Origin: an uncultured Verrucomicrobiae bacterium
GTDB taxonomy: Bacteria; Verrucomicrobiota; Verrucomicrobiia; Chthoniobacterales; JAATET01
Direction of reading: 5' to 3'
Length of the DNA stretch: 64,000 bases
Assembly (NCBI GenBank): GCA_963719495.1
Contig: CAVRCI010000002.1
Location: 704,001-768,000, forward strand
Made by a program: the position numbers and the translations under genes. Below the pieces are notes generated by a model. It did no database searches and was not told the origin of the DNA. It saw only the letters and a program-made list of their open reading frames with translations. Shown here one piece after another: positions 48,455 to 55,698 of this stretch (positions are counted from its first letter, which is position 1; each line of letters starts with the position of its first letter).

Positions 48455-48489
48455 GGTTCTGAACCAATGAACGGACTGACCCCTTTGAC
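48455..48489 (+). repeat. GACTGACCCC-family repeat, left arm (inverted partner at 56082-56116)
   Basis: GGTTCTGAACCAATGAACGGACTGACCCCTTTGAC. Confidence 0.9.
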
Positions 48490-51683: not shown

Positions 51684-51694
51684 CGGACTGACCC

Positions 51695-53249
51695 GAATGG
51701 CACTGCTTTAAGCCAGTTTTCGGGGAGAAAGATGGAGGGAGATCCGCTGATTTGGTAGATTAAAGTGTGAGCAGCAACCAACCATTTCTCAGCGGATTCC
51801 CAACTCAAATATGTGGCAGAATGCGGCGGCGTCTGCAAGCGGTCATCGCGGAGCGACGGAGCGCATTGGCAGAGTCATCCATAGCGACCTACGCGCTGCA
51901 GTTTTCCCGCATCCTGCCGGCCGATTTTTTGGAGTCACTCTCGCTCACGCAACGGGTTCGGCAGTATTGCAATGTGGTCGTCTTCTGGGTGTGGCTGGCT
52001 CAGATTTTAGAGGCCAATGCGTCGCTCTCCAAAGCGGTGAGTCTGGTCCAATGCTGGTGCGGCGAGGCGGGTCTGCCAGTTCCCAGTGGGGATACCGGAG
52101 CCTTCAGTCGGGGTCGGGGACGACTCGGAGAGGCGTTTCTGGCCGGGGCGAGCCAACGCGTGCGCACTCATCTGGGAGCCCGGATCAGGCCCGAGGATAC
52201 TTACAAAGGACACGTGGTCAAATCCATCGACGGCAGCTCGTTGACTCTGGATGACACAGCGTCCAATCAGGAGCAATATCCGCAACCCACGAGCCAGAAA
52301 GCGGGTTGCGGCTTCCCGGTCATGGGCATCATGGGCGTGCTCAACCACGCCCATGGCGGATGGGAGGATTTCGTTGAAGGGCTGCAGAGCGCGCACGATG
52401 CACCGATCTTTCACAAGCTCATGCACTGCTTCGAACCCGGGGATTTACTTTGCGGTGATCGCGCTTTCTGCACCTACGAGTTGATGTCCACTCTGGACCA
52501 AAGGCAGGTCCATACGCTCATGCGTTTGCACCAATCCCGGCACCGCGTCCTGAACTGGAGCCGTGGCAAAAAGCTCGGCAAGCACCAACGCCTGGTTACT
52601 TGGAAGAAGCCCGCTAAACGCCCCGTGGGCAGCACCTTGAATGATTTGGAATGGGCGGCACTACCCGAAGAACTCCAAATCCGTCTCATTCGCTTTGAAT
52701 ACAAGGATCGCGCCGGGAGCAAACGCCGCATGGTCCTGGCCACGACCATGACTGACTCCCTTCGATACGACTGGCGCGAACTGGCCGCCATCTACGCCCA
52801 GCGCTGGGACATCGAACTACGTCTGAGGGACGTGAAAACCACCCTCGCCATGGATCACCTGCGCGTCAAAACGCCCGCGACCGCCCGCAAGACTCTCACG
52901 ATGAGTTTGATCGCCTACAACCTTCTCAAGGCCACCAGCCAGCAAGCCGCGCACAGCACCGGGCAGGACCTCCGACTCATGAGTTTCAAAGCCACTCTGG
53001 ACACCATCGTCGCCAACACCGCTCGCTACCTCCGCCGTCAAAAACACGCCCGCCTCATCAAGGAAATCTGGTCCGACACCATCGAAATGATCGCCGCAAA
53101 AATCATCGATCTCCGCCCCGGCAGGCACGAACCTCGTGCCCAGAAGAAGCGACCTAAAAACTTCAGTTATCTCACCGCTCCTCGCGCTCTCTACCAAGAA
53201 ATCCCTCACCGCGGCAAATCCCGATCCTTCGCTTAATGCAGTGCCATTC
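51695..53249 (+). mobile_element. IS4-family element B
   Basis: IRs GAATGGCACTGCTTTAAGC / GCTTAATGCAGTGCCATTC; perfect 11-bp TSD CGGACTGACCC at 51684-51694 and 53250-53260. Confidence 0.93.
51767..53236 (+). CDS. IS4-family transposase
   Basis: SIDGS, DRAF, YAQRWDIELRLRDVK (YREK-like). Confidence 0.9.
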   Translation: MSSNQPFLSGFPTQICGRMRRRLQAVIAERRSALAESSIATYALQFSRILPADFLESLSLTQRVRQYCNVVVFWVWLAQILEANASLSKAVSLVQCWCGEAGLPVPSGDTGAFSRGRGRLGEAFLAGASQRVRTHLGARIRPEDTYKGHVVKSIDGSSLTLDDTASNQEQYPQPTSQKAGCGFPVMGIMGVLNHAHGGWEDFVEGLQSAHDAPIFHKLMHCFEPGDLLCGDRAFCTYELMSTLDQRQVHTLMRLHQSRHRVLNWSRGKKLGKHQRLVTWKKPAKRPVGSTLNDLEWAALPEELQIRLIRFEYKDRAGSKRRMVLATTMTDSLRYDWRELAAIYAQRWDIELRLRDVKTTLAMDHLRVKTPATARKTLTMSLIAYNLLKATSQQAAHSTGQDLRLMSFKATLDTIVANTARYLRRQKHARLIKEIWSDTIEMIAAKIIDLRPGRHEPRAQKKRPKNFSYLTAPRALYQEIPHRGKSRSFA

Positions 53250-53362
53250 CGGACTGACCCCTTTGATGACCCCTTTGACTGACCCCTTTGATGAACCGAC
53301 CCCTTCGATGAACCAATGAACGGACTGACTCCTTCGATGACCCCTTCGACAATGAACGGACT
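53250..53362 (+). repeat. GACCCCTTYGA repeat array, left part
   Basis: About six GACCCCTTYGA-like units plus AATGAACGGACT. Confidence 0.9.
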
Positions 53363-53399
53363 TCTCTGAAAAAAGGGTCGAAGGGCTGTCAAGGGTCTA

Positions 53400-53680
53400 A
53401 TTTAGAGGGTTCTTGGACCGAGTGGGGCATGGGACGCAGAAGAAAGCGCCCAATGGGTGACCATCAGGGCAGGGAAAAGCGCGGGCTCTTACATTAAGGG
53501 AAGGAGCCTGTAAACTTGGGACGATAGCGATGCTGGAATCACACTTCTCTGCGGGGCGGGCACTTCTGGCCCCCATCCATTGTGGCGATCAGATCCCCAG
53601 CCCTCCATCCTGACCCAAGGTGCGCCGACTAAGTGCTAAGACTTAGCGACCAACCAGTCGTTCATTGGAGCGGCTGGGGA
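53400..53680 (-). ncRNA. Predicted bridge/seek RNA downstream of the IS110 recombinase (ends approximate)
   Basis: Segments matching left target, right target and one donor half, around hairpins. Confidence 0.65.
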
Positions 53681-54873
53681 AATTGTTTTCGAGAAGATCG
53701 ACTTTGGCGTCCCTGGCGTTTTTTCGGGGTTTTCATGTTGCCAGGTTTTTCCTTGGCCAAGCCTGGTTTGGACGAGATTTGTTCTTCCGCGTTGCGGCTC
53801 TGGCTTTGAAGTTTTTGGGACTCGGGAAAGTTCGTGTAGGAACGCCCCTGGGTCAAGAGGCTGCAGGTGATGCGGGCCATCCGGCGGGCGGTGGCTAGGA
53901 TGGCGGTGTTGGCTTTCTTGCCGTGAGCGCGTTTGTTTTTGTAGTAGTCGCCGAAGTAGGGCGAGCAGCCAACAGCCACCCAGGCGGCCTCGACGAAGGC
54001 CCAACGCAGCCATTTGTTGCATTGGGGCAGCAGGCGTCCGTGGTAGGTCTTGCCGCCGCTGCTGCTCGTCGCCGGGCAGAGTCCCGCGTAGCCGCAGAGC
54101 TTCTGCGCGGAGGCAAAGCGAGAGATGTCGTCGATCTCGGCGACGACAACCGCGGCCAGGATGGGTCCCATCCCGGGGAGACTGCAGACGTGGGTGAGCT
54201 CGGGGCTTTGGCTCATGAGATCTTTGAGCGCTGCCTCGTCCTGCCGGATGCGAGCGACCAACTCGTTGTGGAGGGCGAGTTGCTGGGTCAGGAGCATGCC
54301 TGCTGGTTCGGCCAACTCGAGCTTCTCCAAGAACCCCAGCCCCTTCTTGCCGAAGAGATCGCTACAGACAGGAAGTTTGAGTTCGTGCTGGCCGCCGAGT
54401 AACCGGTGGATGCGGTTGCGCAGCATCGTGCGTTGGCGCACGAAGAAACAGCGCTGGCGCAGCACGTTCTTGATGTCGCGGGTCTCGCGACTGGGGATGT
54501 GGACGCTCGAAATCAAATTGGCCCGCAACAGATTGGCCAACGCTCGGGCGTCGATCTTATCGGTCTTGATTTGGGCCTCGGCGATGATCCGCGTCTTAAA
54601 CGGGTTGGCCAACACGATGTTCTCGGCGGGCATCACCTGCTCGAGAATCTCGTAGAGCCAGTGCCAGTTCATGCTCGCTTCGAAGACGATCCGGCACCCC
54701 GGCCACCGCTCGACGAGCCGCCCAAAATCTCCGCTGATCGCGTGCTCGATGCGCCCTTGGCCGAGCACCTCGCCGTGGCCATCAACCACGCAATAGACGC
54801 TGTATCGCTTGTGATAATCGATGCCAATGAAGCTCGATTCCGTCGGTAGGCTTTTTGGTTGGGTTTTCATCAC
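53662..54873 (-). CDS. IS110-family DEDD recombinase
   Basis: IGIDYHK, FEAS, KTDKIDA, LPGMG, YAGLCP..SSGG. Confidence 0.95.
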   Translation of the reverse strand: MMKTQPKSLPTESSFIGIDYHKRYSVYCVVDGHGEVLGQGRIEHAISGDFGRLVERWPGCRIVFEASMNWHWLYEILEQVMPAENIVLANPFKTRIIAEAQIKTDKIDARALANLLRANLISSVHIPSRETRDIKNVLRQRCFFVRQRTMLRNRIHRLLGGQHELKLPVCSDLFGKKGLGFLEKLELAEPAGMLLTQQLALHNELVARIRQDEAALKDLMSQSPELTHVCSLPGMGPILAAVVVAEIDDISRFASAQKLCGYAGLCPATSSSGGKTYHGRLLPQCNKWLRWAFVEAAWVAVGCSPYFGDYYKNKRAHGKKANTAILATARRMARITCSLLTQGRSYTNFPESQKLQSQSRNAEEQISSKPGLAKEKPGNMKTPKKRQGRQSRSSRKQFPQPLQ

Positions 54874-54954
54874 CCCAACCTACACCATTCATTTCATCAG
54901 GCTCTCCGGGCCCCACTTCCCAGCAACGCTCTATTCATCAGCCTTTCATGCCGC

Positions 54955-55002
54955 CTGACCCCTTCGAGACCCCTTCGAGACCCCTTCGACGGGCCCTTCG
55001 AC
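54955..55002 (+). repeat. GACCCCTTCGA repeat array, right part
   Basis: (GACCCCTTCGA)x3 plus GGCCCTTCGAC. Confidence 0.9.
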
Positions 55003-55178
55003 AGGAAATGCTCTGCCACGCCTCGCTTCTCACCACGCAGGTTCACACCCGCGTCGTCCCCTCCGATCTCCAGCGCGTCCACAAGTTCACCGCCCCCAGC
55101 GAACGCCGTGGCGTAATCGACGTCCCCACCTTCGAACTCCACGCCTGGCGTGATCGCAAGAACCGTCACCGCTCCTGA
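55002..55178 (+). pseudogene. Tyrosine recombinase C-terminal fragment
   Basis: QEMLCHASLLTTQVHTRV resembles box II LGH..TTQ.YT, with G>C and Y>H. Confidence 0.65.
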
Positions 55179-55215
55179 TCCGGTCTCGCTCCAACTCCTT
55201 CCCAGCCGTAATCTC

Positions 55216-55698
55216 ATGCCCGTGCGCACGCTCCCGCTCTACCTCGACACCTCCGTCATCGGCGGCTACTTCGACGACGAGTTCGAGGAGGCTACCCGCG
55301 AACTCTGGCGGCAGAAAAAAGCCGGGCGCTTCCGGTTTACGACCTCGGCGGTGACCCGGCAGGAAATCGAGGAAGCTCCGGCCGACGTGCGCGAGTTGAT
55401 GGAAGAGACGTTCCCCGACGCCGATCTCCTTCCGCTCACCGCCGAGGCCATCGAGCTGGCCCGCGCCTACCTCGACGCCGCGGTCGTCCCGGAAACCTAC
55501 GCCGACGACGCCCGGCATGTCGCCATCGCGGTCGTTCACGAACTCCATCTGCTCGTTAGCTGGAACTTCCGTCACATGGTCAACGTCCGCCGATCGGATG
55601 CGTTCAACGCCGTGAACCTCTTGCAGGGTTACCCCCCAATCCGTATCGTTAGTCCGTTGGAACTCATCTATGACGACGAAGAAGAACAAACGCTTTGA
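55216..55698 (+). CDS. PIN-domain (VapC-like) protein
   Basis: YLDTSV, DARHVAIA, LVSWNFRH. Confidence 0.88.
   Translation: MPVRTLPLYLDTSVIGGYFDDEFEEATRELWRQKKAGRFRFTTSAVTRQEIEEAPADVRELMEETFPDADLLPLTAEAIELARAYLDAAVVPETYADDARHVAIAVVHELHLLVSWNFRHMVNVRRSDAFNAVNLLQGYPPIRIVSPLELIYDDEEEQTL

Follow-up and report, generated by a model that had tools for sequence, protein, structure and literature searches.

The described elements closest to the one reported here fall into three sets. The first comprises the IS1111 elements ISEc11, ISKpn4, ISPa11 and ISPst6, which carry a 3' seekRNA (Siddiquee et al. 2024, PMC11187229); in the portions of that paper drawn on here, a GL-P----S(T)G motif is given as a feature of the IS1111 group, and the seekRNA segment complementary to the top strand stands 5' of the segment complementary to the bottom strand. 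The second is represented by IS621, a member of the IS110 group that employs a bridge RNA (Durrant et al. 2024, PMC11208160; Hiraizumi et al. 2024, PMC11208158). The third consists of ISPpu9 (PMC12288879) and ISPpu10 (bioRxiv 10.64898/2026.03.19.712850), both from Pseudomonas putida, which resemble the element described below in that their copies lie in a short multicopy intergenic repeat.

The window analysed here, a stretch of 64,000 nucleotides from an uncultured Verrucomicrobiae bacterium, very probably holds an IS1111-type element of the IS110 family, in which a recombinase gene is followed on its 3' side by a two-loop guide RNA aimed at host repeats. Comparative evidence supports the core of an earlier, sequence-only reading, which had proposed an IS110/IS1111 recombinase with a downstream RNA of bridge or seek layout. 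As in the IS1111/seekRNA elements, more non-coding sequence follows the transposase gene than precedes it (299 nt downstream of the open reading frame, against 81 nt upstream), the protein carries the GL-P----SG motif, insertion is site-specific and into multicopy repeats, and relatives are naturally reprogrammed. The two target matches in the RNA address opposite strands with the top-strand match 5', and the sizes of the target domain (~89 nt) and full domain (~160 nt) compare with 70-100 and 145-170 nt in the available portions of PMC11187229. Departures from that group are a transposase frame of 403 aa, against a range of 330-350 aa reported in the same source, a length owed to a 59-aa unconstrained tail that enters the RNA; subterminal inverted repeats of ~5 bp instead of 7-17 bp; a verrucomicrobial lineage with at most 40% identity to the best plasmid-borne relatives; and an evident second loop matching the element ends, of which no description for IS1111 members was found in the portions of PMC11187229 considered.

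IS621 is compared here on what its papers describe in the parts used. Both elements have one target loop and one donor loop, each of which reads, or in the present element would read, both strands around a CT core, and in both a long guide is accompanied by a short one (the long guide being 9 nt plus core here and 7 plus core in IS621); the donor is more conserved than the target, and the cores seen at the junctions agree with exchange of the top strand 3' of the core. Unlike in IS621, where the left end encodes the RNA, the present RNA comes from the right end, behind the gene; together with the gene it has the inverse orientation to the CT strand. One of the donor guides has no core, and the proteins align over the C-terminal domain only. 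From the REP-targeting ISPpu9 and ISPpu10, as far as their sources were drawn on, the present element differs in host phylum and in repeat, and in having two repeat families, neither perfectly matched. The element, with its left end at 54954 and its right end at 53363, is made up as follows.

53363..54954, minus strand: whole insertion sequence, 1592 bp, defined by five full genome copies that align over 1-1592 with differing flanks
54874..54954, minus strand: left end, 81 nt, terminating in GCGGC (54954-54950), the donor half to which the probable fourth guide corresponds
53662..54873, minus strand: transposase open reading frame, 403 aa, with core residues 15-344 and an unconstrained basic tail (residues 345-403) entering the RNA
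53363..53368, minus strand: right-end terminus CAGAGA
53361..53362, plus strand: core CT at the junction of target left half and element right end (CC in three other full copies and a fragment)
54955..54956, plus strand: core CT at the junction of element left end and target half GACCCC (CT in all five full copies)

By its domain matches, the protein is an IS110-family RNA-guided transposase, and the family named by the sequence-only reading is borne out. Pfam domains PF01548 (DEDD_Tnp_IS110, the N-terminal RuvC-like domain, E 7.7e-16) and PF02371 (Transposase_20, C-terminal, E 8.6e-25) are both present, and residues 15-344 score 227 bits, against a cut-off of 140, with NCBIfam model NF033542 ('IS110 family RNA-guided transposase'). 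The alignment to IS621 is restricted to the C-terminal domain (E 2.5e-10); in the comparison of motifs, KTDKID stands opposite KTDTVD (D102, D105) and SSSGG opposite ESG (S241-G242), while the first catalytic D (GID) and the E (FEA) were assigned from the translation by motif only. The string GLCPATSSSG in the translation corresponds to the GL-P----S(T)G motif of the C-terminal domain. Because the best relatives recovered by tblastn against plasmids are at most 40% identical and are named only generically as 'IS110 family', that search does not itself place the protein in the IS1111 or the IS110 subgroup.

The element has been copied recently in its host genome. Five full copies align over exactly 1-1592 with unrelated outer flanks, which fixes the boundaries independently, and a 120-bp fragment that lacks the right junction is also present. 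The right end reads ...CAGAGA in 17 of 17 loci, and across the five copies and 17 homologues this terminus is joined to AG or GG while the flank is joined to G(C/T)G(A/G)CATGA. Only TGAAA recurs as a subterminal repeat (~5 bp; left-end positions 7-11 and right-end positions 5-9); it is the best local alignment of the ends in nine of 15 homologues, and the best score in the window was reached by 608 of 2000 shuffles. That the element is a decaying, immobile relic whose copies were spread by host DNA duplication would agree with the two copies that a distance of 396 bp separates on a single contig and whose flanks have 60 nt in common on one side, and with the lack of any circle junction or empty-site joint in what was searched: the computed junction string is absent from the genome and from 59 loci, and metagenome contigs of four DNA runs over 53000-55400 gave neither a circle junction nor a joint across the element, only the element with other flanks, as loose ends. 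Such a relic would be very improbable, however, given that the 403-aa frame is intact in all five full copies, that codons differing among copies number 21 synonymous and 3 non-synonymous in the core (6 and 15 in the tail), and that two copies on different contigs show no difference in 1592 bp though both of their flanks differ. A scan of 53250-55050 gave no sigma-70-like promoter. It did give three terminator-like hairpins where 1.8 were expected, including one that follows the RNA, at 53468-53449. A CTTGAC string considered as a junction promoter is not claimed, its distance to the right end varying by eye from 15 to 24 nt and no -10-like hexamer being visible at a fixed spacing.

Excision of 53363-54956 restores CAATGAACGGA-CT-GACCCC, and the identical 19-mer is intact at 48465-48483, as the sequence-only reading had it; its CT dinucleotides at 53361-62 and 54955-56 likewise agree with the sequence. 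Its description of the CT as duplicated holds for two of the five full copies and fails in the other three and the 120-bp fragment, where one side reads CC and the other CT. Where the core is CC, the CC of the target is retained at the left junction (three full copies and the fragment) and the CT of the donor stands at the right junction (the three full copies), so that the core dinucleotide is not a true target duplication; CC/CT junctions of this kind are expected if the top strand is exchanged 3' of the core, the mechanism solved for IS621 (PMC11208158, in the part drawn on). Insertion is site-specific at a dinucleotide core, with neither terminal inverted repeats nor true target duplication.

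From 16 homologues, an RNA domain of ~160 nt containing two internal loops is predicted to follow the conserved core of the transposase. Its parts lie in the window as follows.

53595..53679, minus strand: target-binding domain, with closing stem 53679-53666 paired to 53607-53595 and inner stems and hairpin at 53655-53619
53538..53594, minus strand: donor-binding domain (helices 3 and 4), with closing stem AUC (53594-53592) paired to GAU (53540-53538)
53579-53552, minus strand: inner stem and hairpin of the donor-binding domain
53656..53666, minus strand: guide 1, AAUGAACGA-CU, occupying the 5' side of the target loop and varying more than any other RNA segment
53610..53616, minus strand: guide 2, GGGUC-AG, occupying the 3' side of that loop, complementary to CT-GACCC
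53544..53551, minus strand: third guide, CAGAGA-AG, identical to the last six right-end bases plus core
53582..53586, minus strand: probable fourth guide, GCCAC, pairing with the first five left-end bases GCGGC

Over the 16 sequences the stems comprise 38 pairs in four helices, with 97.9% of cells paired against 37-51% in slid controls, and ten pairs show compensatory alteration of both sides; none of 500 shuffles came as high. Helices 1 and 2 (99% and 96% of cells paired) account for seven of these; in the donor domain, which repeats the layout of the first, two sequences have C-G in place of U-A at columns 94:160. The 96-nt stretch with the first two guides folds better than shuffled sequence (z = -4.16), while the whole 338-nt non-coding end folds no better than shuffles (z = -1.0), and the CTAAGT/ACTTAG hairpin was confirmed at 53646-53629 on the minus strand. 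In the alignment of homologues variable RNA bases are confined to the loops, and among copies the RNA region shows no difference in 180 positions, against 25 in 1032 positions of the core and 28 in 139 of the tail. Rfam returned no relevant match for 53000-55300 at E up to 10; its only two matches, CRISPR-DR29 and SNORD125, were deemed chance.

Three of the four guide segments picked out beforehand (AAUGAACGACU, GGGUCAG and CAGAGAAG) fall within the loops of this RNA. The first had been placed, as CCAATGAACGACT, at 53668-53656 on the minus strand, and GGGTCAG at 53616-53610; both positions agree with the sequence, though the variable guide proper is AAUGAACGACU (53666-53656), since the leading CC belongs to the invariant scaffold. 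In sense, guide 1 is the left half of the target plus core as read on the plus strand of the window. In the orientation of the element, guide 1, the 5' segment, complements the top strand on the right of the insertion point, and guide 2, the 3' segment, has the sequence of the top strand on the left, which is the IS1111 seekRNA order.

Comparison across homologues showed that the loop segments vary in step with the flanking DNA, and that guide 1 tracks the flanks. Guide 1 falls into seven classes among 22 sites, and when classes were permuted against right flanks the own-class sum was reached by four of 5040 permutations ungapped and by two of 5040 with a bulge allowed, figures that overstate independence because the homologues are related to one another. 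Natural matches between guide and flank are imperfect, covering 4-8 of nine non-core positions (one of nine in locus L011), and the fit of L026 to its site is poor. In 13 of 16 loci GGGTCAG stands at the end of the flank; guide 2 and left flank change together in two, L024 and L033 (RNA UAAUAG, flank TAATAG), the only alternative class of guide 2 in the present set. An element that sits in repeats would be expected to share short words with them, and the matches could on that ground be remnants at the DNA level, from a captured target copy or a nested old junction, with no RNA guide involved. This is scarcely credible when the matching segments lie exactly in the loops of a structure with ten compensatory pairs, read opposite strands in the known IS1111 order, differ among homologues in step with their own flanks, and belong to an RNA region that is invariant among copies whose coding sequence differs.

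The two-loop reading extends the guides to the ends of the element itself. The third segment, CAGAGAAG, stands at 53551-53544 as proposed and matches the right end of the donor plus core exactly; its seven core-proximal bases, AGAGAAG, are invariant in 16 of 16 RNAs, and since the right end is invariant too this guide cannot covary. For the fourth, the sequence-only reading had offered a weak candidate at 53430-53421, which was discarded: the conserved RNA does not extend to it, no alignment is obtained there with homologues of less than 90% identity, and even the copies within this genome disagree at two of its bases. The fourth guide is instead probably GCCAC at 53586-53582, judging from its changes in step with the left end. 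Only 5 nt long, it matches four of the five left-end bases and is followed by AA, not by the core complement, yet it covaries with left-end positions 2, 3 and 4: position 4 pairs in 16 of 16 sequences through change on both sides, position 2 in 12 of 16, and locus L050 adds a third two-sided change. A longer pairing with the left end is ambiguous by eye and is not claimed.

It may be asked whether only the first domain guides, as a 'short seekRNA', the second being a scaffold for processing or protein binding and the ends being recognised by protein. In ISEc11 an 82-nt short seekRNA holding target matches only is enough for movement (PMC11187229, in the portions considered), the invariant right end yields no covariation of the third guide, and the short, coreless fourth guide can pair with UGUGAU inside the RNA, as RNAalifold in fact draws it. 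We nevertheless regard this as improbable. The third guide reproduces right end plus core exactly over 8 nt, and its kept bases and the two-sided change in L050 point the same way, as does a second domain whose layout mirrors that of the first. In the window and in L008 the pair between GCCAC and UGUGAU is broken (C.A) while pairing with a changed left end (G at position 4) is retained, for which reason the RNAalifold pairing is kept only within this alternative.

With both loops taken as guides, we infer that the RNA is produced, bound by the protein and directs recombination. A serine/DEDD recombinase gene would be followed by a ~160-nt guide RNA ('seekRNA' or 'bridge RNA'), probably cut from the 3' part of the transposase transcript. 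Of the two segments in the target loop, AAUGAACGA-CU would bind the left half of the target plus the CT core on one strand, and GGGUC-AG the core plus GACCC on the other; in the donor loop, the partner of GCCAC would be the first bases of the left end, and that of CAGAGA-AG the right end plus core. Together the loops would gather the circle junction and the target in one complex, and strand exchange just 3' of the core would give insertion without true target duplication. The preferred targets would be two short host repeat families, neither fitted perfectly; one member stands unoccupied in the window.

48457..48483, plus strand: intact unoccupied host repeat TTCTGAACCAATGAACGGACTGACCCC, class A, whose 17-mer core occurs 26 times in the genome

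The claim made beforehand that the guide is aimed at a multicopy repeat is supported, with corrections. The repeat GACTGACCCC is indeed above chance, with six occurrences in the window against 0.11 expected from shuffles and 79 in the genome against ~18 expected from composition, but three of the five full copies and the fragment lie in a second repeat family and not in that one. The match of guide to repeat is likewise qualified: two families, of 26 and 38 copies, fit the guide imperfectly, one requiring a one-base bulge and the other having mismatches and a CC core, and the perfect site is nowhere in the genome, the predicted 16-mer target having no genome site with 0 or 1 mismatch. At class A sites the same pairing, one base short, is seen in three genomes (those of the window, L009 and L046), and L024, whose guide class is unrelated, has a bulge at the corresponding position; two papers found on this point do not, judged by title and abstract, treat bulged targets.

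The first guide had also been said to overlap the recombinase stop codon. The TGA (53664-53662) does lie inside guide 1, though the overlap is not special to this guide, as an open frame enters the RNA in 12 of 17 relatives and does so in three different frames. Since the transposase frame enters the RNA in three frames, translation and folding of the target loop may exclude each other, and this exclusion may form a built-in switch between the production of protein and of guide. We put forward only tentatively, and as doubtful, the combined proposal that one guide serves two repeat families through a tolerated bulge and core mismatch, together with a switch between protein and guide arising from the overlap; the target loop would here tolerate a flipped-out DNA base and a C/T mismatch at the second core position.

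No new principle is involved, as RNA-guided target choice by IS110/IS1111 elements was already shown in 2024. The element does account for the concentration of insertion sequences at certain short repeats of this genome. Natural mismatched cores and bulged targets bear on off-target rules in the engineering of bridge recombinases, and some 20 insertions allow both ends and both flanks to be read. For the family, the element and its relatives constitute a clean natural data set, a verrucomicrobial subfamily in which at least seven naturally reprogrammed guide classes are carried on one conserved scaffold.

Searched at the DNA level, the genome that the window comes from (4.54 Mb in 16 contigs) yielded five full copies of the element, each aligning over exactly bases 1-1592 of 53363-54954, together with one 120-bp right-end fragment and one 32-bp relic. 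Because the flanks of the copies diverge beyond these shared limits, the boundaries drawn in the sequence-only reading are correct. The transposase ORF is intact in 5/5 full copies, and a copy on contig C14 and that on C9 show 0 differences in 1592 bp within flanks that are unlike on both sides, which indicates that the element moved recently. The circle junction was not found in the contigs of four DNA runs, where the element has other flanks.

Insertion sites in the window's own genome (window plus strand)
Window copy (contig C2): left flank CAATGAACGGACT, element, right flank CTGACCCC
Two C14 copies: left flank CAATATGAATGACC, element, right flank CTGACCCC
C9 copy: left flank CCATATGAATGACC, element, right flank CTGACCCC
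C7 fragment: left flank CAATATGAATGACC, element fragment, right junction absent
C4 copy: left flank CACGAATGATCGACT, element, right flank CTGACCCG

At targets with a CC core, three full copies keep CC at the left junction and carry CT at the right (the C7 fragment has the CC left junction only). CT does stand at both junctions of the window's copy, as the sequence-only reading had it, but since the left and right dinucleotides differ at CC-core sites this 'duplicated CT' is a shared core and not a target duplication. This arrangement is exactly what IS621-type exchange would predict, as in the solved mechanism top-strand cleavage and exchange occur immediately 3' of the core (excerpted text of PMC11208158).

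The protein encoded on the minus strand at 53662-54873 has 403 aa, carries both Pfam domains of IS110-family transposases (PF01548, E 7.7e-16; PF02371, E 8.6e-25) and passes the NCBIfam model 'IS110 family RNA-guided transposase' over residues 15-344, scoring 227 bits where the cut-off is 140. Its only alignments to solved structures are to the IS621 (E 2.5e-10) and ISCro4 (E 4.1e-10) recombinases, in their C-terminal domain, and the KTDxxD stretch and SG catalytic motif fall in register. Conservation stops at about residue 344, beyond which lies a basic low-complexity tail.

Relatives come from scanning one genome per species with the protein, which gave 37 loci at 48-96% identity, nearly all from Verrucomicrobiota metagenome bins. 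In blastn with the window's non-coding end, the equivalent of element positions ~1264-1428 is present in 17 of the 37, and only the two closest (90%) align on to the right end. RNA alignment A1 comprises the window and 15 loci; L009, whose RNA is nearly identical to that of L008, and L022, whose second domain is disrupted, were omitted. RNAalifold and our own structure string describe a predicted fold of two domains:

Predicted RNA fold
Domain 1, closing stem: CCCCAGCCG.CUCCA paired with UGGAGGGCUGGGG
Domain 1, inside the closing stem: 5' loop strand; inner stems GGU/ACC and GGUCG/CGGC; hairpin; 3' loop strand
Domain 2: closing stem AUC/GAU; 5' loop strand; inner stem UGG/CCG; GC-rich hairpin; 3' loop strand

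The structure has 38 pairs, 10 of them changed on both sides. Of its 608 cells in A1, 97.9% are paired; sliding the partner by 1-3 columns lowers this to 37-51%. None of 500 shuffles came up to A1 in paired cells, in pairs or cells with two-sided changes, or in covariation score; the tally of further standard pair types was not above chance (496/500 shuffles as high). The CUAAGU/ACUUAG hairpin noticed earlier is among the best-supported helices, with changes on both sides at two pairs (AU to GC in 7 sequences; CG to UA or GC in 4). By itself the 96-nt first domain gives a folding z of -4.16. R1, a covariance model of this domain, detected the RNA in 8 genomes, the window's own included, out of a sample of 151 from the order.

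It is the loop strands that hold the variable bases of A1. Guide 1, in the target loop of domain 1 (window AAUGAACGACU, 53666-53656), falls into 7 classes over 22 insertion sites, namely 17 loci and the five own copies. The right end is ...CAGAGA in 17/17 loci, with AG next in 16 and GG in 1. The reverse complement of the guide agrees with the flank of its own site at 4-8 of the 9 bases past the core, apart from a poor 1 of 9 at L011. The own-class sum of 40.4 (permutation mean 26.6) was reached by 4/5040 class-label permutations of the 7 classes, or 2/5040 with one skipped DNA base allowed at a penalty, figures that overstate independence because the guide classes are related lineages. Guide 2 (GGGUCAG, 53616-53610) is the same in 14/16 aligned RNAs, and where the left end is readable (16 loci) the left flank terminates in GGGTCAG 13 times and in GTGTCAG once; L024 and L033 have UUAAUAG in the RNA and ATAATAG in the flank. 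At three sites in a congener genome (G055) the guide is AAUGCACGACU, and the flanks AGTCCGTTCATT, AGTCGATCATT and AGTGTGCAAAA fit it if one or two mismatches, or a shift by one base, are allowed.

Two short repeat families in the genome contain the target:

Host target repeats
Class A: TTCTGAACCAATGAACGGACTGACCCC, 17-mer core 26 times in the genome
Class B: AAATGTGTCAATATGAATGACCGACCCC, 15-mer core 38 times in the genome

Of the occupied sites, one belongs to class A, three and that of the fragment to class B, and one is of another kind. In the genome GACTGACCCC occurs 79 times, where composition predicts about 18; in the window it occurs 6 times, with 0.11 expected. Joined without a gap, the two guides predict a 16-mer that is absent from the genome at 0 or 1 mismatch and has 6 matches at 2 mismatches. 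Class A fits this 16-mer if one G is passed over; in class B, 3/16 positions differ, one of them in the core. The same skip is seen at class A-type sites of two further genomes (L009, L046), and L024, of an unrelated guide class, has an extra base at the same place.

Several further arrangements were seen in the window's own genome. Class B occurs as inverted pairs about 55 nt apart (C4:333516/333571, C4:336457/336512 and C13:311941/311996), resembling a miniature inverted-repeat element or REP pair. At C14:87231-90809 two element copies lie in the same orientation with 396 bp between them, both preceded by the same 60-nt stretch of class B context, and at C13:458270-458309 there is a 40-nt remnant of the target-binding domain's 3' half (GUCGGCGCACCUUGGGUCAGGGUGGAGGGCUG), truncated by unrelated sequence. 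After the target repeat come short local tandem copies of a unit made of GACCCC and a locus-specific 5-6-mer (window 54957-54990 and 53255-53350; for example GACCCCTTCGA three times); such copies recur with other 5-6-mers in the left flanks of L010, L013, L046, L048 and L055 in other genomes; one idea is that they are footprints of elements making 11-bp duplications. Directly beside the IS110-type element lies an IS4-family element (51695-53249; ORF 51767-53236, 157 bits on NF033592) with ends GAATGGCACTG, flanked at 51684-51694 and 53250-53260 by the 11-bp direct repeat CGGACTGACCC, part of the same host repeat. Its end motif has seven matches in the window against 0.9 expected, and its end abuts ...ATGAACGGACTGACCC in at least 5 other loci of the genome.

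In the donor loop, the third guide CAGAGAAG (53551-53544) is identical to the right end's last six bases and the core. AGAGAAG is unchanged in 16/16 RNAs, which shows conservation and not covariation because the right end is also invariant. For the probable fourth guide, five bases in the 5' strand of the second loop pair with the left end's first five (GCGGC in the window); they read GCCAC at window 53586-53582, and relatives have GUCGC or GUCAC. At left-end position 4 the window and L008 have G facing RNA C, the other 14 have A facing U, and all 16 are paired; position 2 pairs in 12/16, as C-G or T-A, and is mismatched in the window, L008, L024 and L033. The more distant L050 has left end GTAAC and RNA AUUAC, position 3 having changed on both sides. 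This candidate guide is short, followed by AA and not by a core complement. RNAalifold alternatively pairs its bases with UGUGAU within the RNA, a pairing broken (C.A) in exactly the two sequences with a changed left end. The weak candidate named earlier for this guide, 53430-53421, lies beyond the conserved RNA and was rejected. Elsewhere near the right end, CTTGAC is conserved 15-24 nt inside it (window 53387-53392 and all 17 homologues), and a TTGACA-like word stands ~12 nt into many right flanks.

The transposase frame passes via its tail into the first stem of the RNA and stops at a TGA inside guide 1. It ends within domain 1, 18 to 90 nt past the domain start, in 12/17 elements (window counted), the remaining 5 having earlier stops in the frame walked. 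Because the conserved RNA sequence is read in three frames (...FPQPLQ, ...FPSRS..., ...PAAP...), the overlap is not a protein-coding constraint. Between the window and C14:89218 copies, the coding core differs at 25/1032 positions (codons 21 synonymous, 3 non-synonymous), the C-terminal tail at 28/139 (6 synonymous, 15 non-synonymous) and the RNA region at 0/180; across the five copies, element positions 1253 to 1458 hold no variable column. The tail forms a hypervariable patch (window 53703-53841, element positions 1114-1252) that adjoins this difference-free region; the other three copies largely share the C14:89218 changes in it, and it looks like a recombination patch or relaxed constraint.

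The element agrees with IS1111-type elements, as far as the excerpts of PMC11187229 describe them, in having its long non-coding region downstream of the gene, in its domain sizes, in the order in which the two target matches occur and in the GL-P----SG motif; its subterminal inverted repeats amount to a weak TGAAA that does not exceed shuffles. With the IS621 bridge RNA, in the excerpted PMC11208160, the element shares the two-loop logic, the CT core and, read on the CT-carrying strand, the long/short guide order, whereas gene and RNA here lie on the strand opposite to CT. From this anatomy and comparison we infer that the RNA is expressed, processed and bound, and that it guides.
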